Positions 1-60,525 of a stretch of 64,000 bases of DNA are shown here, piece by piece. Origin of the DNA: a virus; the IMG/VR virus record IMGVR_UViG_3300020045_009879, positions 31,872 to 95,871 of that record; one strand, 5' to 3'. The notes under the pieces are model-generated. The model saw nothing but the letters and a program-made list of their open reading frames with translations. It was not told the DNA's origin and ran no database searches. Numbering within the stretch: position 1 is the stretch's first letter; every line of letters begins with the position of its first letter. Made by a program: the position numbers and the translations under genes.

Positions 1-360
1 GAATGCAACTGTTACAAAGCACTTATAGCCGCAGGAATTACTTTTGACCATCACACAAAGCATGAAATATTTCCAGGATTTATCTCTTCAATTACATCAT
101 TTGATAAAGATGAACGCAAGGGAAAAGACATGTATCTTTCCTCTGAAAAATTCGGAAGTCTCTCATATACTCCTGATTACCAGGCTAAAGACTATTCGTG
201 GTTCATAGAAACAAAGGGTTTTCTGCGGCCTGAGGCTGCCATGCGGATAAAACTATTTAAAATGAAACTTACGCAAGAAGGAAGTACGGCGCATTATTTT
301 ATGCCAAGAAATAAAAAACACATTGATCAAACTATTGAAATAATTAAAACGTTACAATGA
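1..360 (+). CDS. PD-(D/E)XK nuclease (endonuclease I / DUF1064-like), 5'-truncated by window edge
   Basis: Frame 1 is open from base 1 (ECNCYKALIAAGITF...) into the 130..360 ORF; motif YTPDY...FIETKG matches the PD..ExK signature. Confidence 0.75.
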   Translation, partial: ECNCYKALIAAGITFDHHTKHEIFPGFISSITSFDKDERKGKDMYLSSEKFGSLSYTPDYQAKDYSWFIETKGFLRPEAAMRIKLFKMKLTQEGSTAHYFMPRNKKHIDQTIEIIKTLQ

Positions 361-1127
361 GAGAGGAAATAAGAGAGATATTTTATCAAAGAGCCAAGTT
401 GTTACAGAATTTAGATAAGATAGTATCTGCCGGACATAAGGCTGCCAATAAGAGTAAAAATCAAATGTCTCTCTTTGCAGAGGATGAATCGTATTCTGAT
501 ATCATATTAGAAGAGCCAAAAGACTTTAATCCATTTGAATTTGTTGAAATGGAAAAAGATACCATAGGATTTTCATTAACATATTCTGAGTATGAGAGAT
601 ATGAAATGTTAAATTGCAGATATTGTAATAGCACTTTAGAAAAGGTCTTCGGGGTAGAATTTGAAGGTAATAAAACATTTCTTGCTAAGTTGGTAGACAT
701 ACAACATAAAACCAGTGGATTTGGCAATCCTTTTGCAAAATTAATATTTGCTTATGATGGAACAAAAACTAAGATGTATTTATTTGGAGATCTATATAGA
801 AAGAATCTGGTAAAATGCTTTATCAATAGAATATATTTGATTACTGCCACACACAATATCGAACGTAATTCCCTTGATTTAGTTAATTTTATGCCAGCAG
901 ACGATGTCTCTGATCTAAATATTAAAGTCATATGGGTCTCTGTACCACTAAGTAAATTGGCACTGCTAAAGACTTATTTATATGTGCATATGAAAGGCGA
1001 CAATTTTCCTATAAATATACACGTCTCAGATAAAAACTTTACCTATATGGAAGTATTAAGATGTAATATTAATAATGAAAATCTTGTAGAATTAAGAAAG
1101 CAGGGAATAACAATAAAATTAAGATAA
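357..1127 (+). CDS. Stand-alone C-terminal fragment of DNA polymerase III alpha (DnaE): beta-clamp motif, OB fold, C-terminal domain
   Basis: RAKLLQNL...QMSLF...EMEKDTIGFSLT, then OB-like KTSGFGNPFAKLIF...LFGDLY, colinear with the last third of DnaE; no PHP/palm motifs. Confidence 0.7.
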   Translation: MREEIREIFYQRAKLLQNLDKIVSAGHKAANKSKNQMSLFAEDESYSDIILEEPKDFNPFEFVEMEKDTIGFSLTYSEYERYEMLNCRYCNSTLEKVFGVEFEGNKTFLAKLVDIQHKTSGFGNPFAKLIFAYDGTKTKMYLFGDLYRKNLVKCFINRIYLITATHNIERNSLDLVNFMPADDVSDLNIKVIWVSVPLSKLALLKTYLYVHMKGDNFPINIHVSDKNFTYMEVLRCNINNENLVELRKQGITIKLR

Positions 1128-31773: not shown

Positions 31774-32691
31774 TTACGCCAAATCCTTACCATAAGCGAT
31801 CAGAGCGGCGACATCAGTTTTTGCTGCATCGGCTACTGCGACTGTTAAATGGCGAGGAGACTGTTGTACTGCATGATTATGCTCATCGCCTCCCCAAAAT
31901 TGGAACTCGAACAATTCATAATCAGTACCATCGACGACATCAGATACGAAAGCAAAGTCGTTAGGCCAAGCCTGTCCTCTGTAGGAGTCAGCGAAGGCGC
32001 CACGGGTTTGCCATTCCAAATCTTTCAGGAAGTTTACACTTGTTGGATTTTGAACCCCAGCAGTATAGGCCAGAGCCAATCCAGTAATTGCATTAGTTGT
32101 AACACTAACTTCTGTAGCTTTAACAACGAAATCAATTGGCCGACCATCTTTCTTACCAGTAACAAACGGAAGAGCAATGGACTGCAGAGTAATGACCGCG
32201 CCGCTAGAGGTAATAGTAAAATAAGTTTGACCCATTCTTGTTTGGGCTGCATTAAGACTAGCAGTTAAACCAGTGGCAATGTTTGTGGTATTGGTATCTA
32301 CTGCAATAAATGAGCCAGTAAGGAAAACCACGTCTTCCGTACTAAGAGAACCATCACCAATAATTTTAACAACACATTCATAAAGATCTCCAACGACACC
32401 AGTAGCAACGGTTACAGTTACACTTGGAAGGACTGGAGATACATTAGCGACTTGTTTGTAGGAAATAATCTTCAGTGGATCGATCATGTCAGACCTGCGA
32501 ACACGTCCATCAAGATGTTTGTAGAGAAAATAAAATGGAACCTGGGCATTGTTTGCAACACCGCCGAATTGGGTGAACAGTTGAATCTCTCCAGCAGAGG
32601 CAGTTGCAACAAAAGTGGCCGGAGTTGTCTCAGTGGCTTTTGCGCTAGCGACGATAAGATCCCGTTCTTGATTAATAGAATACTGTGACAT
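31774..32691 (-). CDS. Auxiliary (decoration) capsid protein
   Basis: MSQYSINQERDLIV...RSDMID...DLEWQTRG...YRG..WP...QQSPRHLTV; synteny after ring genes. Confidence 0.75.
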   Translation of the reverse strand: MSQYSINQERDLIVASAKATETTPATFVATASAGEIQLFTQFGGVANNAQVPFYFLYKHLDGRVRRSDMIDPLKIISYKQVANVSPVLPSVTVTVATGVVGDLYECVVKIIGDGSLSTEDVVFLTGSFIAVDTNTTNIATGLTASLNAAQTRMGQTYFTITSSGAVITLQSIALPFVTGKKDGRPIDFVVKATEVSVTTNAITGLALAYTAGVQNPTSVNFLKDLEWQTRGAFADSYRGQAWPNDFAFVSDVVDGTDYELFEFQFWGGDEHNHAVQQSPRHLTVAVADAAKTDVAALIAYGKDLA

Positions 32692-35184: not shown

Positions 35185-36705
35185 TTATGCTAATTCAACA
35201 GGAATCAAACTTGCTGTCCTTGATGGATCGAGAACGATCGCCCCAAGGGTACATTGTTTATGGATTACTGCAGAGTCTTCATCATATGACATGTTGTCAT
35301 TGTTAATTGCACCAGTGAACGGGTTTCTAAAGCCCCACTGATAACCACGAATTTCTTCCTGACCCTTGATCTTGGCGATCTGAATGTTTGGCTCTTCCAT
35401 GCTACCAATATACAGGATGTCATAACGATATGACTCTGCTGGCATAGGAACTGAACCGCGGAAATCAGATGCTTGAGTTTTATTACGAACTGGATCGTCA
35501 TAGAAAGGATCTACCTCAACACCTACAACAACACCATTAGGAGCGCGCCATTCAACGAATTGGAATCCAACAGACAATGCGTTATCATGCAAAGGAGATT
35601 TAACCCCTCTCATGTTGCCAGCATTATCGTCAAACCTCATACCTGCAGTAACGGTACCAAGCCATCCTTGTGCGATGTCTGTAATTGCTTTGTGGAACTG
35701 AGCAGCTCCGCCTTCTCCTGTGCGTAAAATGAACTTACGTTCACCCATACCCAACTTAGAGTGAGACAAACTGTAAAGCATATCCTCGATATAACGAATG
35801 CTGAACTTGCCATAATACTGAGTATTAGACACCTCCATTTGTTCGCGAATACCAGAACCCATCTTAATAGCATTACCAGACTTACCAATATTCTGATATT
35901 CACCAGTGGAATCACGGTTAGTACGAGAATAGATGATAGCATGATTTTTCTCTTCAGAAAATTCTTCTTCCAGCTTGAAGTCAACATAGTGCATCCAGCC
36001 ATTCATGGTCTGTTTGTTACCAGCCTTATCAACAACAGGAATACCCATCTGGATCTTCATGTCGTCAATGTTGCCAGGAACTTTATGCTTGATACGAATG
36101 GTTGTCCACTCGTTACGCATAGATGTGGGAGAGGTGAAGTGAATATCCCCAACTTGGCGAGACATTTTTTCTTCAACAGGAGAGAAGTCTTTAGAGAAAC
36201 GTTTCCCAGCGATAAGTTCTGAACCTGGCATGCCAGAAGAGTTAACACCAAGCAGTTCTACGGTGTAAACAACGTACGAACCCTCATTGCGACCGTCACC
36301 GATAACACGCAAAGGATACAATTCATTCTTTTCGCCAACGATTTGGTTGCCATCAGCAAACCAATCTTCTTCGAACAGAAGTTCAAAACGATGTCCAGCA
36401 GCACCAACATTGGTTGTACCTGTAACGATAGGATCTACTCCCGATTCGCGCGCAGAAACCAATTTGATATTACGCCTAGAAGAGCCAATTAACTGCCATA
36501 CAAATTCATCGGAAGTATCGAAATACTTCACGGGAAACTGTTGCAGATAACTCTCTAGAGATTTACCACGATTATAGGCCAAGAGCTGAATCATGTTCTT
36601 AGCGGCAGCTTGTGGCTGTCCTTTGAAGATTGACCTAACATGGTTTTTGTCAGTAAGTCCCTGCCACGCTTTGGGGGCAGTCATTTGAAATTTACCTAAA
36701 CTCAT
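35185..36705 (-). CDS. Major capsid protein (crAss-type HK97 fold)
   Basis: 506 aa; WQGLT.KNH, F.EDWFADG, MRNEWTTIR, GSGIREQ, TGEGGA.QFH, GFQFVEW.APNG, ESYRYDI, G.RNPFTG. Confidence 0.92.
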   Translation of the reverse strand: MSLGKFQMTAPKAWQGLTDKNHVRSIFKGQPQAAAKNMIQLLAYNRGKSLESYLQQFPVKYFDTSDEFVWQLIGSSRRNIKLVSARESGVDPIVTGTTNVGAAGHRFELLFEEDWFADGNQIVGEKNELYPLRVIGDGRNEGSYVVYTVELLGVNSSGMPGSELIAGKRFSKDFSPVEEKMSRQVGDIHFTSPTSMRNEWTTIRIKHKVPGNIDDMKIQMGIPVVDKAGNKQTMNGWMHYVDFKLEEEFSEEKNHAIIYSRTNRDSTGEYQNIGKSGNAIKMGSGIREQMEVSNTQYYGKFSIRYIEDMLYSLSHSKLGMGERKFILRTGEGGAAQFHKAITDIAQGWLGTVTAGMRFDDNAGNMRGVKSPLHDNALSVGFQFVEWRAPNGVVVGVEVDPFYDDPVRNKTQASDFRGSVPMPAESYRYDILYIGSMEEPNIQIAKIKGQEEIRGYQWGFRNPFTGAINNDNMSYDEDSAVIHKQCTLGAIVLDPSRTASLIPVELA

Positions 36706-37947: not shown

Positions 37948-38499
37948 CTAAAATAATCCCTTAATCTTTGTAAGTGCATTACCAGCAGACGTAATGATGC
38001 CTCCAGATGTAGATTTATTTACAATCCATAGTGCGCCACCAACCAATAATAGAATAACAAACCACCCGCTGTATTTAAAAAACTTAGGAATGTATTTTTC
38101 TGCAGGAAGAATTACGACATTTGCCGTCTCTTTGACTACTTTAGTTATGGTTATCGTATCAACCCTAATGGTCTCCACGTATGTCTTATTTAACCAGGCA
38201 TCGACAGTAAGCCTGTTATTCAAAACCCACGCCTTGGCCGTAATAAAGCCCTTGGTGACACTGACGGGTTCAAGTGATACCAGAGTACCATTTACGGTTA
38301 ATATTCGATCTATGGTCACCGTATCGCTTGGCAATTGAATTCTAACTGTATCCTTACGATAAATAGTGGTATCTCTATACACTGTAGTGGTGTTAAGACA
38401 CACCTTAGCAAATTCATCGCAATTACGCTGGATTCTTCCGACCGTTAAGCATGAAGACAAAAAAATCGCCATAAGCGATATTAATAATAGTTTTTTCAT
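37948..38499 (-). CDS. Putative unimolecular spanin
   Basis: Lipoprotein signal MKKLLLISLMAIFLSS-C, beta-rich middle, C-terminal TM (GWFVILLLVGGALWIV); directly follows the endolysin. Confidence 0.7.
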   Translation of the reverse strand: MKKLLLISLMAIFLSSCLTVGRIQRNCDEFAKVCLNTTTVYRDTTIYRKDTVRIQLPSDTVTIDRILTVNGTLVSLEPVSVTKGFITAKAWVLNNRLTVDAWLNKTYVETIRVDTITITKVVKETANVVILPAEKYIPKFFKYSGWFVILLLVGGALWIVNKSTSGGIITSAGNALTKIKGLF

Positions 38500-39008
38500 T
38501 AGTTAAAAAATTTAAGTTCTCCCGTTGTAAATAATAATGCCTCTGATTGTCTACGATATAATAATCCTTTCATAAACACTCCATCAGCAGTAATATAGTG
38601 ACTTGTCATCCATTTAGTTATTTCGGATGCAGAGACCTTTTGGTTTACTAGTTGTACCATGGTGGCAGAATACCCAATATTAAAGAAATAACTTACCAGT
38701 GCATCAAATTCATATTGTGTTATTGGAATATTAATCCTTAGTTTTACCTTGGCCTCTTGTTTTAAGAGGTCGTCTGCCAACAGTTTATCTGCATCCTCAA
38801 CTGTCATATTGGGATACGTTGCATAAGCTATATCTTTATTCGTAGCACCTTTTAAAAAACTTCCATTTACCGTAATTGCATGCCCCCAACCGGCGGTCCA
38901 TACTCTACTAGGATCCATCTTAGGTTGAAGTCCTATCATGGACAAATCATTGTCATTGATGTTTTCGTAATGCGTAATTAAACTAATTCCCTGGTTGGAT
39001 GTTGTCAT
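38499..39008 (-). CDS. Endolysin, GH24 (phage lysozyme) family
   Basis: LITHYE...D..RVWTAGWGH...EFDALVSYFFNIG...GLLYRRQSEALLF. Confidence 0.92.
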   Translation of the reverse strand: MTTSNQGISLITHYENINDNDLSMIGLQPKMDPSRVWTAGWGHAITVNGSFLKGATNKDIAYATYPNMTVEDADKLLADDLLKQEAKVKLRINIPITQYEFDALVSYFFNIGYSATMVQLVNQKVSASEITKWMTSHYITADGVFMKGLLYRRQSEALLFTTGELKFFN

Positions 39009-39267
39009 CTTTAGGAGTTGTTGTTGTTGTTTTGTCTGTTGTGGTAGTGGTTGAATGACTGCTTGTCTCGGAGAACTTATAATTTAAAATCTTCTCAATA
39101 ACCTCTTTGGCCGATGAGTCCTTAAACCAAATCATGAAGAATGCCGTTACGCATAATATCATAAAATCCGTAGAACCAAATCGTTCTAAACTATAAAGCA
39201 GGAATGCCGCATATGGTATAAGCAGCAATCCTAACAATGTGGTTACGGAATTAACAAATTTTGGCAT
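38983..39267 (-). CDS. Putative holin (2 TM)
   Basis: Two hydrophobic segments and a hydrophilic tail; overlaps the endolysin start. Confidence 0.6.
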   Translation of the reverse strand: MPKFVNSVTTLLGLLLIPYAAFLLYSLERFGSTDFMILCVTAFFMIWFKDSSAKEVIEKILNYKFSETSSHSTTTTTDKTTTTTPKDDNIQPGN

Positions 39268-39270
39268 TGA

Positions 39271-39669
39271 TTATTTGGCTGGTATTCTCTCATTAATAAT
39301 TGTTGAAAGTTCTGTAAGTTTTGTGCCAAGTTGAACGTTCATCGTATTTACAAGCAACGACAAGTCTGTAACCCTAACGTCTATACTATGTATGTGGTTT
39401 TGTGCCAAGGCCCTAGATTCATTCATCATTTCACTCATTTCCTTAAATCGTCTTTCATTGGATTCCTTTGTCCAATGAAGCTCCTGGGCTAATAACGCAG
39501 CCTTGCCGTCTATCTCTTTTTCCGAGATAGCCTGTCGTTTTTCAATATCGACCTGTGGTCTTTTAAACCAATTTATACCAGTAAAAATTGCTGTAAGGAT
39601 CGCCACTATAATTGCAATATCTGATAGTAATGACGAGGAAAATAGGTAGGGTGTTACTTGTGTCTGCAT
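39271..39669 (-). CDS. Membrane-anchored coiled-coil protein (holin/antiholin-like)
   Basis: One N-terminal TM (IAIIVAILTAIFTGINW) plus coiled coil, within the lysis cassette. Confidence 0.5.
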   Translation of the reverse strand: MQTQVTPYLFSSSLLSDIAIIVAILTAIFTGINWFKRPQVDIEKRQAISEKEIDGKAALLAQELHWTKESNERRFKEMSEMMNESRALAQNHIHSIDVRVTDLSLLVNTMNVQLGTKLTELSTIINERIPAK

Positions 39670-39696: not shown

Positions 39697-40110
39697 TTAC
39701 TCTTTAATTTCTTCTTTATTGCCAAATAAAAAGTCCAAGATATTAGAGGTATCGTAAGTAAGTTCAATATTACCCAACGATTCCATGTTTACCCCAGAGT
39801 TAAACACGTCAAACTCAATAGTATTTTGTAAAAATTTATTTATCTCCACATTATACTCCTTAGTAAGATCTTCTTTTTCTTTTTCTTCTTTCTTGGATAG
39901 TTTTTCTATTTCTCCTAACTCTTTCAACCTAGTGGGCATAAATTCTTGGATCTCTTTTCTAAAATCTGCGCAGAAATCTGCAGCTTTTTGGAGATTACGT
40001 TTTACAGACACATTAAGAGACAGACTCTTAACCTTACTCTCCCTGAGTTCTGTAATAACGTTTTGTAATTGATTCTCTAAAATGAAACATTCAGTGTTTG
40101 TGATTTTCAT
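39697..40110 (-). CDS. Hypothetical helical protein, possibly a fibre-assembly chaperone
   Basis: 137 aa, charged helical; follows fibre genes; has its own promoter. Confidence 0.5.
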   Translation of the reverse strand: MKITNTECFILENQLQNVITELRESKVKSLSLNVSVKRNLQKAADFCADFRKEIQEFMPTRLKELGEIEKLSKKEEKEKEDLTKEYNVEINKFLQNTIEFDVFNSGVNMESLGNIELTYDTSNILDFLFGNKEEIKE

Positions 40111-40138: not shown

Positions 40139-40169
40139 CAAATATACAACAAAAAAATGCAAAATGCAA
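40139..40169 (-). promoter_or_regulatory. Bacteroidota primary-sigma promoter for the chaperone/lysis genes
   Basis: Minus strand TTG-N20-TATATTTG(CAAAA). Confidence 0.75.
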
Positions 40170-40170
40170 G

Positions 40171-42993
40171 TTAACTACGTAGAGTGGTTTGTAGGTAGAA
40201 TTTAAACGTGCTCCCAGTTAGTGGGGCAACAATGGTTTCTCCTGCTGTTGCTACCATATAGAGGTTTTTGGTAGTAGTAGTTGTATAACTGACACCTGGT
40301 TTAACGGATCCAATAACTCTTGCGGAACCAGACGGCAATGCGTTAAATGTAATCTCAAACCCTCCATTGGCAGTCCTAATATCTGCATTTGCAATAGTGT
40401 CCGCAAAGACAACATTATCTCCCACCATACCTGCGGGCGCCTCAGTAAATAGCCAGCATATGATTTTCTTACTGGCAAACTGTACGCAAGATGTTTCTAT
40501 CCATACATTTTCAAGAAATCCACTGCCACCAACAGTCTCTGCCATATCAGTGAGAGTGATTGGGATTATAGTGGAGTTCGCTAAAGTATGTGCGACACTA
40601 CCAGTAATATTTGCAGTAGTAATAGTAAAGACTGGTGCGGTAAATGGAGTGCCGGCTGTTTGTGCCTCAAAGACCAATGTATTGGTGGAATTGGTTAATA
40701 CTATTCCCTGGGCCAGATAGTCTGCTGCATTGGCACTTTGAAATGTAGAGGCAGTGGTGTCGTTGTCTGTAACATATGTAATTGTTTTACTTAATCCACC
40801 AGCGCCAGTAATTGTAGCTGCGCCAATAGCAACATTAACTTGATCAACATTAATTGTTCCATCAAGATCCCCTGTAAGATTATCTATTGCAACAGCAGTA
40901 AATCCGGTACCTGCGACATTGGCTTCAAACACAAGGGTGTGTCCAGAATTTGTCAATACAATTCCATCAGTTGATAACCATGTTGCAGCATGTGCATTTT
41001 TAAACGCAAGTGTTGTTGCATCCTCATCGGTGGTAAACGTCATTGTATATGACAGTGTTCCCGCAGAAACTGTTGCGGTGCCAACACCGGTAGTAGTCAC
41101 ATTAACCTGATTAACTGTAGTAGATGTTGCTGCAAGATCTCCAGAAACATTGGTAACGGTTGGGGTATTAAAATCCACTCCGGCCACATTTGCTTCGAAA
41201 ATAAGAGATCCAGTATTTGAGGTTAATACTACGCCATCCACCAGGTATGCTGCACTATTAGTAGACACAAATCCTGCTGCCGTAGTAGTTAGATCCGTAT
41301 TAAATGTTATTAGATGTGATAAGTTTGGGGTTAATGCAACTGTAGCCGTTCCAATTGGGACGTTTGCATTAGTGTGATTCGGAGTTCCTGTGATAGTTCC
41401 AGTTAATGCGGCGCCAAATGCTGGCGCATCAAATGCTGTTCCGGCTACGCGTGCGGTAAAGACAATATTATCACCATCTGCCATTAAATCAATGCCCTGA
41501 GCAAGATAGTCAGATATATTACCAGCTGAAGCAAAGGCAGTCGCCGCAGCAGCAGCAGTGGTATGAAAAGTAACCAACTTAGTCAGTCCACCGGTTACGG
41601 TAATATTTGCAGTGCCATCTGCTGTGTTGGCAGTTGTCGGAACAACACCACCATTAACCGTTCCCGTTAATTCCGCATCTAATACCGGGGCAGTAAATGC
41701 AACACCTGCAACACTGGCCTCGAATATAATATCATCGCCACTCCCGGTAAGCGCGATGCCAACAGCAAGATAGTCGGCAATATTCCCCATAGAGACAAAT
41801 GCGGCGACAGCAGCAGCTGCAGTAGTCGAATATGTTAATAGTTTTGTCAGTCCACCGGCATTAATAACATTAGCAGTTCCATTAGCAACATTAGCAACGC
41901 TATTTGCCATTGAACCAGCCAGGTTGCCAGTAAGGGTGGTGACATCGGTGACTGGCAGTGCGGTGCCGGCGGTATTGGCCGTAAATATTACAGAGGCAGT
42001 TCCGGCAGTTATTGTTATACCAAAAGTAGTATTGTAATAATTTGCATGGGCAGTGACGAAGTCAGATGCGGTAGTATCTAAATCTGTATTAAATGTAATT
42101 AATTTATTTGTGCCACCGACGATTGTCATGTTTGCAGTACCAGCAACAACATTTGCAGTACTGGCGGTTGTTCCACCAAGATCAGTATCGCCGGCAGTAA
42201 TTGTTGGTGCTGTGAATGGAGTTCCTGGAGTAGCGGCAGTAAATATAATATGTGTTGTTGAACTAGACAGTGTAATCCCAGCGGTTGCATATTCTGCAAT
42301 ATTAGTAGGATTAGCAAATGCGGCAGCAGTACCAGCTAAGTCCGTTGTCCAGGTAACGAGATTGGTAAATCCACCAGTACCAGAAATTGTTAGTGTTCCA
42401 GACGATCCAGTAAGGGTAATATCCTCTACCTGCGCCACCGGGAGGGTTCCGGTTAGCGTAACAATATCGACCTGCGCAACTGCAGCAGTACCAGTTATTG
42501 TCATTGTCTCCTTCTGTTTTACAGCAGCGGTACCACCAAGTAATATTTTCTCTATCTGAGCTTCTTGTATCGTACCCTCAAGAGCAATAGTAACTTTTTT
42601 CTTTCTAGCCTCGGTGCCAGTAATGGTTAGAGTCTCTTTTTGTTTTTGTCTAAGAGTTCCACCGAGAGTAATTGTTTCTTTTTGTTTTACGTTAACCGTA
42701 TAGGTGGAGATAACATCATTGGCCGCATAATCATTTGCATCAGCAGGCCTCGTCACTGCGGCAGAGACCCTTTGCGGAACACTGGATGGGGATACAAAAG
42801 CTCCCGTAGAGTCTATTAATTGCACCTTAGTATATCCCGTGGTTCCACCGTCAGTTCCCAATAGGGTATCATTTATTTCTGATAGTCCAGCAGTCGTAGC
42901 CAATCCCGCAGAAGTCGTTGTAAATTCTGTGGTTAATTCTGCTAATGTTTGCTCTGTGGCCAATCCTTTCCAGGACTCTTTTGCTAATGTCAT
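40171..42993 (-). CDS. Putative virion appendage/fibre protein with seven nested repeat domains
   Basis: 940 aa, Thr/Ala/Gly-rich; 7 short strand repeats followed by 7 repeats of about 88 aa. Confidence 0.7.
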   Translation of the reverse strand: MTLAKESWKGLATEQTLAELTTEFTTTSAGLATTAGLSEINDTLLGTDGGTTGYTKVQLIDSTGAFVSPSSVPQRVSAAVTRPADANDYAANDVISTYTVNVKQKETITLGGTLRQKQKETLTITGTEARKKKVTIALEGTIQEAQIEKILLGGTAAVKQKETMTITGTAAVAQVDIVTLTGTLPVAQVEDITLTGSSGTLTISGTGGFTNLVTWTTDLAGTAAAFANPTNIAEYATAGITLSSSTTHIIFTAATPGTPFTAPTITAGDTDLGGTTASTANVVAGTANMTIVGGTNKLITFNTDLDTTASDFVTAHANYYNTTFGITITAGTASVIFTANTAGTALPVTDVTTLTGNLAGSMANSVANVANGTANVINAGGLTKLLTYSTTAAAAVAAFVSMGNIADYLAVGIALTGSGDDIIFEASVAGVAFTAPVLDAELTGTVNGGVVPTTANTADGTANITVTGGLTKLVTFHTTAAAAATAFASAGNISDYLAQGIDLMADGDNIVFTARVAGTAFDAPAFGAALTGTITGTPNHTNANVPIGTATVALTPNLSHLITFNTDLTTTAAGFVSTNSAAYLVDGVVLTSNTGSLIFEANVAGVDFNTPTVTNVSGDLAATSTTVNQVNVTTTGVGTATVSAGTLSYTMTFTTDEDATTLAFKNAHAATWLSTDGIVLTNSGHTLVFEANVAGTGFTAVAIDNLTGDLDGTINVDQVNVAIGAATITGAGGLSKTITYVTDNDTTASTFQSANAADYLAQGIVLTNSTNTLVFEAQTAGTPFTAPVFTITTANITGSVAHTLANSTIIPITLTDMAETVGGSGFLENVWIETSCVQFASKKIICWLFTEAPAGMVGDNVVFADTIANADIRTANGGFEITFNALPSGSARVIGSVKPGVSYTTTTTKNLYMVATAGETIVAPLTGSTFKFYLQTTLRS

Positions 42994-43033: not shown

Positions 43034-43064
43034 CAAATATAAAGAGAAAATATGATAATTCAAA
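43034..43064 (-). promoter_or_regulatory. Bacteroidota primary-sigma promoter for the 940-aa gene
   Basis: Minus strand TTTG-N19-TATATTTG. Confidence 0.75.
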
Positions 43065-58146: not shown

Positions 58147-60525
58147 TTATTTTGATGTTTTAGGTTTATTTCTGGCTATAGTCTCCTTAGCCTCATTGGA
58201 TCTTTTTGTTTCCTCTAGTATAGCAGCATCAAGAGTCATCTTATCACGGTGTTTCTTTTCCTCCAAACTAATCTTTGCACTATCATCCTGCGGTTCTGGT
58301 TTACTATTGGCATTAATCTCTGCCACCTGTATCTTAGTTTCGTTATCGAGCTTATTCATCTCTACATTAGCCTGAATTGTTCGTTGAGACATGTTCTCTC
58401 TGAACTTCTCTATCTCTAACTGCGTCTGAAGTTGTTGCTGCAACTGATCCTGTTTAGTCTTCTCTATCTGTGCATTGAGTTCCATTCTTGCTTTCTCATC
58501 TTTTTCAATCATCTTAATATTCTCTGACAGAGAGGATGATGTAAAGATCTTCATTATAGTAGAGAAAGATAACGTACTTGTCTGTAGTGCTGCATGAGCA
58601 AGTTGTTCTAATTTCTGATCGAGATTTGTCACGCTTGCGGAGTTATCTACAATAATACCAAAGTCTACCTCTGAAAAATCTTCTCCACCAATCTCATAAA
58701 TCTCCATAGAATAATCATCGGAGATGTTCTGGAACTTCTTTTTATTATTTTTAAGTGCAATCTTAGCGGTTTCAATCAGACACTCAAGACAGCGTTTCTT
58801 AACATTATCGTGAACATAAAATAATTCCTCGGTTATATTTGAAGAGGCATTAACAGACCTTTCTATTCCACCAACAGTTTCGCTGGATGTAATCTGCCCT
58901 TGTCTTTGTCTGGAGATACCGGCAATCTCAAACATCTCATTCTTAATCCACTCCAATAGAGATAGATGGAAGTTGATTGATGCAGAGTTGTCAAGATTTA
59001 AAACTTTCCCAGTAGTGTTGTTTAACGATGCTGCAAGTTTACCTGTTGAGGCACCCTTGTTACCCTCCTTAAATGAGTCAACGGCAGCTATGCCATCCTG
59101 TTTTAAGAAGTGAAACCATGTTTCAAAAGTCCAGCCATCTGGTATCTTTGCAAAGTCAACCTCTATACTCTGCCCGTAACTGCGTGACATGGCCTTATTC
59201 AGACGATCTGCCACGATGGTATATAGGTATGCATAGGGCTTCATCCTATCTAATACAGATACTGGCTTTGCGTGGTTGGTGTTATATGTCTGTCCAATAA
59301 CACCTAGGTGACATTTCGATGGGTTAGATATTCTGTTATACTGTATCTTTCTGGGACGCATATTAACATATATGTCCTTTCCAATCTTAGTGCCCTCCCA
59401 GGCCTCGTTAATCCAGTAAGGAGTGACCTCTTCACCCCTTGCCTTATCTGCAATATAATCCTCTGGAACGAAAGTAAATTCCTCTTCTCCGGTCTGTTCG
59501 TTGTAATATTTTAATTTAAGAACCTTTCTTTGTGACTTCCATCTTACGCGTAATACGCGGATGTTACCATTACCATCGTAGTAGTTTGAGAATGTTCTAC
59601 CCATGGCACCAGCAAAATAGATCATTTGGTCTACGCTATTAGCCTCATCGCCAACGGCTGGAGTATATATTAAAGATGAGCGTTCGTCGATATTATCCAT
59701 ATCGTCGACCTTACTAATACTATTAGTCTTATTAATCAGGTCGATATCATCCTCTTTTAGTTCATCATAGTAAGTATCTATGATTCTACCCGGACTCCAA
59801 TAATCTTGCATGATAATAAGATCCGCATCTTCTGCCCTAGATGAGTATCCATTTCTTAATATGAATACCTTCTGTGGATTAAGTCTTTCAAATGTAGGTT
59901 CTCCCTGTACAACATCAAAATCATAAAGTTCCTCACCACAAATAGCCACATCTTTCATTCCCTGATTCCAGAGAATCTTCATATCTAACTCTTTTATATA
60001 GTGCGATAAAAGAAAATTGGCACTTCGTTCGCGAGCATCTTGCCAAGAATACATAAAGTAATCACCATGCTCTTTCAGTTTCTTTTGAAAATCATCTTCG
60101 CCAGTAGAAGAGTTCTGGATCAGTTGCATAAAAGCCTGATCTAACTCTCCCTTACGTTGCTCCTCTTTTTCAGAGATGGCGTTATTGTTGGATACTACAG
60201 CCTTAAATTCAAATCGACGTTTGGCCTCTTCACCTACTAAAACGTTGATCGGAGAATTAACTATGGATAGATATTGAATACTTTCTGGAACAAAACCTTC
60301 AGCATCGATACCATAGGGATTTATAACTTGCTTAAGATCAGACATATGGATCTTGCCGTTCCATAGGTCATAGTTAATTTTCTTATGGCGAAGACTACTT
60401 CTTACGTTGTTATCATAAGCCATCGAACTCATGTCCGACCAATCAATATTGGACTTACGCCACTTCTTCCCCTTTTGAGAATATGGTAATTTTTGACTTG
60501 GATATCCTGTTGGCCACGTGTACAT
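58147..60525 (-). CDS. Portal protein
   Basis: 792 aa; PSQKLP..QK...W, NVLVGEEAKR, WINEAWEGTKIG, GISRQRQGQI...ETVGGIERSV; follows terminase. Confidence 0.92.
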   Translation of the reverse strand: MYTWPTGYPSQKLPYSQKGKKWRKSNIDWSDMSSMAYDNNVRSSLRHKKINYDLWNGKIHMSDLKQVINPYGIDAEGFVPESIQYLSIVNSPINVLVGEEAKRRFEFKAVVSNNNAISEKEEQRKGELDQAFMQLIQNSSTGEDDFQKKLKEHGDYFMYSWQDARERSANFLLSHYIKELDMKILWNQGMKDVAICGEELYDFDVVQGEPTFERLNPQKVFILRNGYSSRAEDADLIIMQDYWSPGRIIDTYYDELKEDDIDLINKTNSISKVDDMDNIDERSSLIYTPAVGDEANSVDQMIYFAGAMGRTFSNYYDGNGNIRVLRVRWKSQRKVLKLKYYNEQTGEEEFTFVPEDYIADKARGEEVTPYWINEAWEGTKIGKDIYVNMRPRKIQYNRISNPSKCHLGVIGQTYNTNHAKPVSVLDRMKPYAYLYTIVADRLNKAMSRSYGQSIEVDFAKIPDGWTFETWFHFLKQDGIAAVDSFKEGNKGASTGKLAASLNNTTGKVLNLDNSASINFHLSLLEWIKNEMFEIAGISRQRQGQITSSETVGGIERSVNASSNITEELFYVHDNVKKRCLECLIETAKIALKNNKKKFQNISDDYSMEIYEIGGEDFSEVDFGIIVDNSASVTNLDQKLEQLAHAALQTSTLSFSTIMKIFTSSSLSENIKMIEKDEKARMELNAQIEKTKQDQLQQQLQTQLEIEKFRENMSQRTIQANVEMNKLDNETKIQVAEINANSKPEPQDDSAKISLEEKKHRDKMTLDAAILEETKRSNEAKETIARNKPKTSK

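Follow-up and report, generated by a model that had tools for sequence, protein, structure and literature searches.

How can a protein carry seven short β-strand repeats in one part of its chain, and the seven domains to which they might belong in another? This question is raised by a gene on the minus strand of a 64,000-nucleotide stretch of viral DNA (positions 31,872 to 95,871 of IMG/VR record IMGVR_UViG_3300020045_009879; hereafter the window), which encodes a protein of 940 amino acids (aa) that we refer to as P0001. A first-pass annotation of the window had noticed, at 40570-42690, seven strand repeats followed by seven bodies of ~88 aa, the whole array splitting an outer domain, and had proposed that each domain was inserted into a loop of the previous one, so that strand k would pair with body 8-k. 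Based on the analysis presented here, we consider it very likely that P0001 is a crassvirus surface appendage in which one ~100-residue α/β domain is nested recursively. Strands and bodies occur in equal number, they pair in mirror order, and strand and distant body together are predicted to form a known fold.

Layout of P0001

The span singled out in the first-pass annotation corresponds to aa 102-808 of the open reading frame (ORF), and its description proved accurate to the residue. The strand repeats (s1 to s7) lie at aa 102-199 with a strict 14-aa period, and all seven share a consensus of the V-K-Q-K-E-T-I-T-L-T-G-T type. Searching the ORF with a hidden Markov model (HMM) of the body gave seven full copies and no more (b1 to b7); these start at aa 199/200, 285, 372, 460, 548, 638 and 724, are ~85-90 aa long, and score 84-107 bits per copy, which shows the nested domains to be mutually homologous. 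The same HMM matched none of the remaining ORFs of the window. Strand 7 is the only one to border on a body, being directly joined to b1; the strands are otherwise segregated from the bodies, so that, contrary to a plain tandem-repeat protein, the repeat unit is not contiguous.

The bodies are 31-58% identical in pairwise comparison (b3 and b4 being the closest pair, at 58%), and Tandem Repeats Finder detected no DNA repeat at either the strand or the body period. We thus regard the array as old and diverged, and not as an assembly artefact. A protein from another sample, P0002, which is 84% identical to P0001, has the identical layout of seven strands and seven bodies.

Strands and bodies occur in equal number

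A word-indexed search returned 38 relatives of P0001, and an exhaustive phmmer search returned 320 at E<=0.001, of which the best 150 were examined. These relatives are generally devoid of Pfam domains or useful names, flagellin domains being found in the one called P0154 (see below). Each protein was written as a word, strands being scored with a position matrix, bodies with the HMM, and both halves of the outer domain (the host domain of the array) with profiles; with s as opening bracket and b as closing bracket, the words of the 73 homologues that have both host halves were then tested for balance.

Balanced words were found in 67 of these 73 homologues, ranging from no unit at all up to s7b7. 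In the 11 homologues without a unit, the N-terminal motif of the outer domain, R-P-A-x4-Y-x2-G-D, is fused straight to its C-terminal part of ~130 aa and the domain is uninterrupted; the array is therefore an insertion, and the split outer domain of the first-pass annotation is real. The N-terminal loop of this host domain carries the motif R-P-A-x4-Y-x2-x-D, in which R82, Y89 and D93 do not vary across 46 sequences. Among the 67, single or simply nested words are sb (19 proteins), ssbb (5), sssbbb (6), s4b4 (1), s6b6 (1) and s7b7 (4), while mixed words are sb-s4b4-sb (3), sb-s5b5-sb (5) and sbsb-ssbb-sbsb (1). The remaining balanced homologues are plain (sb)n tandems with n up to 9, in which each strand stands directly before a body. 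As read from these words, the unit of the family is s+b, ~100 residues long, and it occurs in tandem or nested.

When only proteins with a run of at least two strands are considered, the strand count equals the body count in 26 of 27, with n = 2 to 7. Given the observed spread of n, we calculate the chance of such a match to be ~0.18 per lineage, and coincidence of the two counts was rejected on the evidence. The equal counts that the first-pass annotation had expected of homologues are thus borne out, with P0018 as the one true mismatch among the 73 complete proteins. The other words that fail to parse belong to P0021 and P0030, where a body is divergent or split; to P0051 and P0072, where there is an apparent insertion at another loop, or a degenerate strand; and to P0114, a 203-aa protein that resembles P0005 but has a deletion fusing body 1 to the C-terminal part of the host. 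The fusion in P0114 is at a shared G-D-N/T site, with the rest of the array removed.

A second kind of nesting was observed in P0029, P0031, P0033, P0053, P0078, P0118 and P0161, where a full body lies inside another body. The outer body is split near HMM column 50-59 (in P0051 possibly near column 28), so that more than one loop of the domain can accept an insertion. P0095 (548 aa) has an uninterrupted host domain and, at its N-terminus, another repeated module of the V-W-F-D-I/V-D type; the host domain has thus been combined with other arrays too.

Strands pair with bodies in mirror order

The question of which strand belongs to which body can be approached through losses. P0008 contains an inner s5b5 array, whose strands we label 1, 2, Q, M and 5 and whose bodies we label i1 to i5. 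Compared to P0008, P0012 lacks inner strand 2 and also the orthologue of i4, and P0011 lacks strand Q (inner strand 3) and also i3; in both proteins, strand and mirror body are lost together. Parallel pairing would predict the loss of i2 from P0012, which is instead retained at 66%. The same order is seen for a strand of the E/I-A-Q-I/V-E-K type, which is the fourth strand of P0001 and the fifth of P0003: the mirror bodies of this strand (b4 of P0001 and body 3 of P0003) are each other's best match, at 57%.

Covariation between strands and bodies was derived from 222 contiguous s-b units of tandem and single-unit proteins, whose pairing is unambiguous. Strand position 4 is most strongly coupled to body column 53, where E or T stands in the I-F-E/T-A strand, with K-E in 90 units, V/I-T in 117 units and ~15 exceptions. 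At these positions, strands s1-s7 of P0001 read KKKIKVV and bodies b1-b7 read TTETEEE, which obeys the code in 7/7 cases when paired in nested order and in 3/7 when paired in parallel order. For P0013 the corresponding numbers are 4/4 and 0/4, and for all six informative proteins, i.e. those in which the two orders differ, they are 34/36 and 12/36. Using the single coupling, the nested order lies within the best 2.9% of 5040 permutations; this becomes 0.32% with the top 4 couplings and 0.16% with the top 10. The parallel order is mid-rank or worse, a fraction of 0.79-0.89 of the permutations reaching its score or a better one. Pairing of strand k with body k, which would give a compact array instead of a rod and which is compatible with the counts alone while having nothing specific in its favour, is effectively refuted by the code, the permutation rank, the co-loss in P0012 and the mirror-wise ranges of the structural model described below, and we give it practically no chance.

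Predicted structure of P0001

An AlphaFold2 model of P0001 was obtained from a 46-sequence alignment. Its mean predicted local distance difference test score (pLDDT) is 84.9, and all seven strands are predicted to be β-strands, with pLDDT values of 74-91. In the model, each unit is predicted to be an α/β domain that starts with a 14-aa leading strand, followed by a body of ~86 aa made up of two strands, a helix and four strands. For every superposition, VIA-align reports the model residues at which it begins and ends, and nesting was read from these.

For s2+b6, solved domains of ~90 residues superpose on ranges from 115..718 to 116..723 of the model. The best match is 8kee_A (Z 10.8, root-mean-square deviation (rmsd) 1.9 Å, 89 residues), and further matches are 9khy_a (Z 9.9), 9ndy_H, 4nx9_A (Z 8.0), 9d93_Ma and 9atl_A. 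The range 171..371, which corresponds to s6+b2, is matched by 9f4b_FD (Z 8.0), T4 gp11 (1el6_A, Z 7.5) and 8fop_T, and the range 186..280, corresponding to s7+b1, by 9cb9_A (Z 10.1). Overall, the superpositions of ~90-residue domains have Z 8-10.8 and rmsd 1.9-3.1 Å. The two nested domains D2-D3 of FliD (5fhy) superpose on 160..455, which comprises s5, s6, b2 and b3, and jelly rolls superpose on 68..940, i.e. on the N-terminal strand and the C-terminal part of the host. The mirror pairing that the first-pass annotation expected from structure prediction is thus seen at levels 2, 6 and 7 and for the host; at levels 1, 3, 4 and 5, for which no single solved domain was superposed, the partners are supported by covariation alone. 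Taken together, parity, mirror co-loss, the K/E vs V/I-T covariation and these superpositions support the pairing of strand k with body 8-k.

The same data bear on a rival view, in which P0001 is an ordinary repeat protein: the short repeats would make up a separate structure (a β-meander or an oligomeric shaft), the bodies would fold alone, and the counts would agree by coincidence. The short repeats are indeed contiguous and regular, as are the shaft repeats of some fibres, and bodies with the degree of identity observed here could be autonomous domains. Against this stand the equal counts in proteins with strand runs, the strong covariation between strands and bodies, the placement of each strand directly before a body in the (sb)n relatives, and the superposition of solved single domains on a strand and a distant body. 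We therefore find it very improbable that P0001 is an ordinary repeat protein.

Mirror pairing could also take place between chains, such that the strands of one subunit complete the bodies of another in a domain-swapped fibre. Fibre and cement proteins are usually oligomers, and counts, co-loss and covariation are all blind to the difference between pairing within and between chains. However, in the monomer model every level that can be seen is closed, with high confidence, by segments of a single chain; s7 joins b1 without a linker, so that a hairpin is forced; and relatives of the NsbC type place one unit in a loop, so that the ends of the unit must be adjacent. Pairing between chains thus appears improbable to us, and we favour nesting within a single chain.

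Proposed architecture

In the simplest relatives, one s-b unit sits in a loop of the jelly-roll host, while in P0001 seven such units would be nested at the s|b junction. We suggest that the chain exits the jelly roll and, on its way out, contributes the first strand of domains 1 to 7 one after another; it would then make a turn at the s7-b1 tip and return, completing domains 7 to 1 before it finishes the jelly roll. The expected product would be a rod of seven beads, presumably stiff, with two chain crossings per joint and, by our own arithmetic (98 residues x 3.4 Å), a length of at most ~33 nm. Its base would consist of the jelly roll together with the N-terminal anchor, which is variable, and its tip, s7+b1, may be the end that engages in interactions. 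The features of the gene are listed in Table 1.

We further speculate, with considerable doubt, that the K-E and V/I-T pair types in their mirror order act as a register code that steers each strand to its own body during folding, and that this code, together with spare strands tolerated as loops, allows the length of the rod to change one level at a time. If this were true, natural and evolvable rods of quantised length would be shared by phage fibres and flagellins.

Table 1. Features of the P0001 gene, with window positions, strand and the data that define them.
Feature	Residues (aa)	Window positions	Strand	Basis
Whole gene	1-940	40171..42993	minus	ORF list and translation
Promoter-like site		43034..43064	minus	TTTG at 43064-43061, 19-nt spacer, TATATTTG at 43041-43034; ~40 nt upstream of ATG
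N-terminal helical low-confidence segment (W-K-G-L-A type), proposed virion anchor	1-70	42784..42993	minus	pLDDT 43-60; helices 2-7 and 14-29
Host jelly roll, first strand and conserved loop	71-101	42691..42783	minus	alignment; jelly-roll superpositions 68..940
Strand s1, partner b7	102-115	42649..42690	minus	K at position 4, E at b7 column 53; predicted β-strand 105-111
Strand s2, partner b6	116-129	42607..42648	minus	superpositions 115..718 to 116..723; K/E match
Strand s3, partner b5	130-143	42565..42606	minus	K/E match; β-strand 133-139
Strand s4, partner b4	144-157	42523..42564	minus	I/T match; orthologous pair is P0003 strand 5 and body 3
Strand s5, partner b3	158-171	42481..42522	minus	K/E match; nested FliD domains superpose on 160..455
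Strand s6, partner b2	172-185	42439..42480	minus	superpositions 171..371; V/T match
Strand s7, partner b1; sole contiguous pair, putative rod tip	186-199	42397..42438	minus	superposition 186..280; V/T match
Body b1, innermost (distal)	200-284	42142..42396	minus	body HMM
Body b2	285-371	41881..42141	minus	body HMM; pairs with s6
Body b3	372-459	41617..41880	minus	body HMM
Body b4	460-547	41353..41616	minus	body HMM
Body b5	548-637	41083..41352	minus	body HMM
Body b6	638-723	40825..41082	minus	body HMM; pairs with s2
Body b7, outermost (proximal) inserted domain	724-810	40564..40824	minus	body HMM, top score (107 bits)
Rest of host jelly roll	811-940	40174..40563	minus	C-terminal domain conserved in 79 homologues; superposes with N-terminal strand on jelly rolls

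Exceptions and growth of the array

Several observations count against the nested architecture and have to be set beside the evidence above. The P0001 model has a predicted template modelling score (pTM) of 0.38, a value to be expected when domains are strung together, and thus makes no prediction of the global shape, whether a straight rod or a bent one. Nesting in this model is read from end residues alone, for levels 2, 6 and 7 and the host. Under the nested order, one K-T mismatch is found in P0005 and one in each of P0008 to P0012. The host domain matches generic jelly rolls alone (Z 6-8), and no relative of P0001 was found in Pfam, in PHROG or among the sequences of solved structures. 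Lastly, P0018 (s6b4) is truly unbalanced, and P0180 (1377 aa), which belongs to the flagellin cluster described below, has 4 strands for 5 bodies.

P0018 (686 aa) has six strands, three of which are nearly identical, and four bodies, three of which are 88-94% identical to one another; such near-identical repeats indicate that the array was amplified recently or that the assembly collapsed. When P0018 was modelled with AlphaFold2, pLDDT values below 50 were obtained for exactly two strands, those in the middle (aa 146-178), the other four being confident, and the ranges 189..283, 176..377 and 121..555 correspond to s6+B1, s5+B2 and s1+B4. With exactly two strands looped out and these three mirror pairs, P0018 behaves as nesting predicts. 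A surplus strand is predicted to form a harmless loop, and may represent a tolerated intermediate.

P0018 and P0180, both unbalanced, suggest a route in which strands and bodies are gained or lost in separate steps, for growth by duplication, and in which selection brings their numbers back into agreement; alternatively, arrays may grow by the insertion of whole units. At the distal end, the s7+b1 unit (window 42142-42438, aa 186-284) is identical in 93/99 positions to the innermost unit of P0005 (aa 217-315), and the flanks of this unit are 37-53% identical between the two proteins. Judged by these identities, the tip would fit either an exchanged module or a strongly constrained end.

Fold relatives and database searches

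The predicted s-b unit has the fold of the protruding domain found in the sheath proteins of contractile phages (A-1(L), PhiTE, Milano, Mu and 7-7-1), with Z 9.2-11.0, rmsd 1.8-2.5 Å and 11-20% identity. Using the models of both P0001 and P0018, matches to 8kee have Z 10.3-11.0 and rmsd 1.8-2.2 Å over 88-89 residues, and those to 9cb9_A have Z 10.1-10.6. The fold also matches the insertion domain of T7-like nozzle proteins, and the outer domains of flagellin and FliD.

For flagellin there is a link at the sequence level. A phmmer search with P0001 found P0154 (1392 aa) at E 1.1e-09, a true bacterial flagellin that carries Pfam Flagellin_N and Flagellin_C and has the word s b [s5 b5] s b in its variable region. 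Among its 15-aa strands four are identical, five of its bodies are 84-92% identical, and P0175-P0180 are members of the same cluster. The Pfam scan of P0154 found Flagellin_N and Flagellin_C alone, and no family covering the s-b unit.

Scans of P0001 itself found no Pfam family at E<=1 and no PHROG at E<=0.1, and the same two scans gave no match for ten relatives that have the host domain only or a single unit. No match was obtained by tblastn of P0001 against 50,697 phage records, and a profile search of PDB sequences gave a lectin as best match (E 0.029) and no solved relative by sequence. Foldseek with the whole P0001 model gave poor multi-domain matches only against the PDB, and uncharacterised phage proteins only against BFVD, including proteins of 160-270 aa that match the host domain; in the ESM Atlas, only viral clusters labelled 'hypothetical protein' were found. 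The host domain is thus common to small uncharacterised phage proteins in BFVD and the ESM Atlas. The proteins described here define an uncharacterised family of phage surface proteins for which there is no Pfam or PHROG model.

Comparison with known nested proteins

Recursive nesting of domains is already known from Si3 and from flagellin; new in P0001 are a different fold, a single recursive site, a graded series and a simple pairing code. Si3 belongs to the β' subunit (RpoC2) of cyanobacterial RNA polymerase, and its crystal structure shows chain segments far from one another coming together in each of the sandwich-barrel hybrid motif (SBHM) domains SBHM-2 to -5 (PMC10895346). The six-level nesting of Si3 is cited as an example of complex nested organisation in a 2026 survey that covered 2.7 million ECOD domains (PMC13114784); the seven levels of P0001 are deeper than this example. 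As in Si3, which forms an elongated arm, homologous small β-rich domains (SBHM in the case of Si3) are placed one inside another, and P0001 has the feature typical of Si3, i.e. discontinuous domains that are closed by segments far apart in sequence, with the inner domains lying wholly between these segments. The two differ in fold, in host (the trigger loop for Si3) and in function (transcription for Si3). They also differ in that Si3 has mixed insertion sites and branching, while P0001 uses one site recursively, giving seven levels plus the host, and in that the P0001 family, unlike Si3, comes with a natural series of zero to seven levels and with tandem (sb)n alternatives. In this series there is one strand per body in mirror order, which makes the nesting legible from sequence alone.

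In flagellin, the chain runs out and back through D0-D1-D2-D3, with domains that are closed by segments from the N- and the C-terminal side (PMC6248924). P0001 shares this out-and-back course with flagellin, FliD and the hook protein, and its s-b unit superposes on domains of FliC (4nx9_A, Z 8.0) and FliD. The nested domains of classical flagellins are, however, mutually unlike and at most ~four deep, whereas P0001 iterates one domain seven times; P0001 also has none of the D0/D1 helices of flagellins. It shows repeat growth inside an out-and-back protein, which is a question that has been raised for giant flagellins (PMC6248924).

The protruding domain of sheath proteins (A-1(L), PhiTE, Milano, Mu) is the best fold match of the s-b unit, yet with low sequence identity (11-20%) and no relation by Pfam or HMMER. 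In sheath proteins, such domains decorate a polymerising subunit, whereas the s-b domain would be the building block of a free-standing stalk, proposed here for a crassvirus of the podovirus type. Nesting is not foreign to sheath proteins either: in T4 gp18, domain I lies inside domain II, which in turn lies inside domain III. Finally, the s-b unit offers a simple scaffold for the design of rods of set length.

Gene neighbourhood and probable location on the virion

The window belongs to a crassvirus. Its major capsid protein (MCP; gene at 35185..36705) is at most 58% identical to those of Crassvirales from human faeces, Bacteroides and Flavobacterium, and the portal gene lies at 58147..60525. 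The P0001 gene closes a block that includes, upstream, ORFs of 571 aa (with a PHROG tail-fibre match), 1659 aa (fibre-like) and 364 aa; downstream come small ORFs and a lysozyme-like ORF, the latter assigned by reading the translation alone. The P0001 gene thus lies in the tail-fibre module of the window. Its product showed no similarity to a tail-fibre family in the PHROG scan or the tblastn search. A profile search for related loci, using a second, narrower alignment, found one locus (L001), on an otherwise unrelated viral contig of 48.7 kb; its placement is comparable, with a 695-aa (sb)n homologue that likewise comes after tail-fibre genes and an endolysin.

The N-termini of the homologues fall into several interchangeable classes, as is the case for fibre anchors, and together with the gene context we therefore read P0001 as a virion appendage, probably located among the tail-fibre gene products; its role may lie in host or mucus binding, or in spacing. 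A blastp search with its N-terminal 101 aa against all ORFs of the window revealed no shared anchor. In crAss001, the head fibres gp21 and gp29 and the tail fibre gp22 are encoded between the portal and MCP genes, and head and tail fibres dock via their first 26-58 residues (PMC10172136). The P0001 gene has a comparable position and its product has a variable N-terminal segment. P0001 differs from the three crAss001 proteins in that no sequence similarity to them was found, and in that their distal domains have other folds and are not nested.

The head fibres of crAss001 insert a short N-terminal segment into pockets of the hexons as their anchor (PMC10172136), and this raises the possibility that P0001 is nested as proposed, but is a stalked protein of the capsid decoration or cement type, and not part of the tail-fibre apparatus. 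The top matches of the host domain can be seen in this light, as they include phage GP4 (8h89_J, Z 7.8 over 126 residues), Pam1 (7eel_H, Z 7.1) and the trimeric cement protein of KHP40 (7dou_4, Z 6.7). However, carbohydrate-binding modules, plant-virus capsids and nucleoplasmin match the host domain equally well (Z 6-7), and because such unrelated jelly rolls score alike, the likeness to cement and decoration proteins says little. The P0001 gene sits with tail-fibre genes and not beside the MCP gene, and its product has no sequence relation to gp21 or gp29 of crAss001, the tblastn search of phage records having given no match. We thus think a capsid location unlikely, though plausible enough to be kept in mind, and prefer to place P0001 with the tail fibres.

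The P0001 gene also has the promoter-like site of its own that was claimed in the first-pass annotation; as read from the sequence, the elements TTTG-N19-TATATTTG are present as described. This site presumably fits the -33/-7 consensus of Bacteroidota, and is a predicted promoter. The downstream neighbour gene (39697..40110) is likewise preceded by a TATATTTG motif, at 40139-40146. Going by these motifs, promoter-like sites for single genes may be the rule in this block. The lysozyme-like ORF and the small ORFs occupy 38499-39669 of the window and thereby separate the MCP gene from the fibre block, a placement that looked unusual to us.

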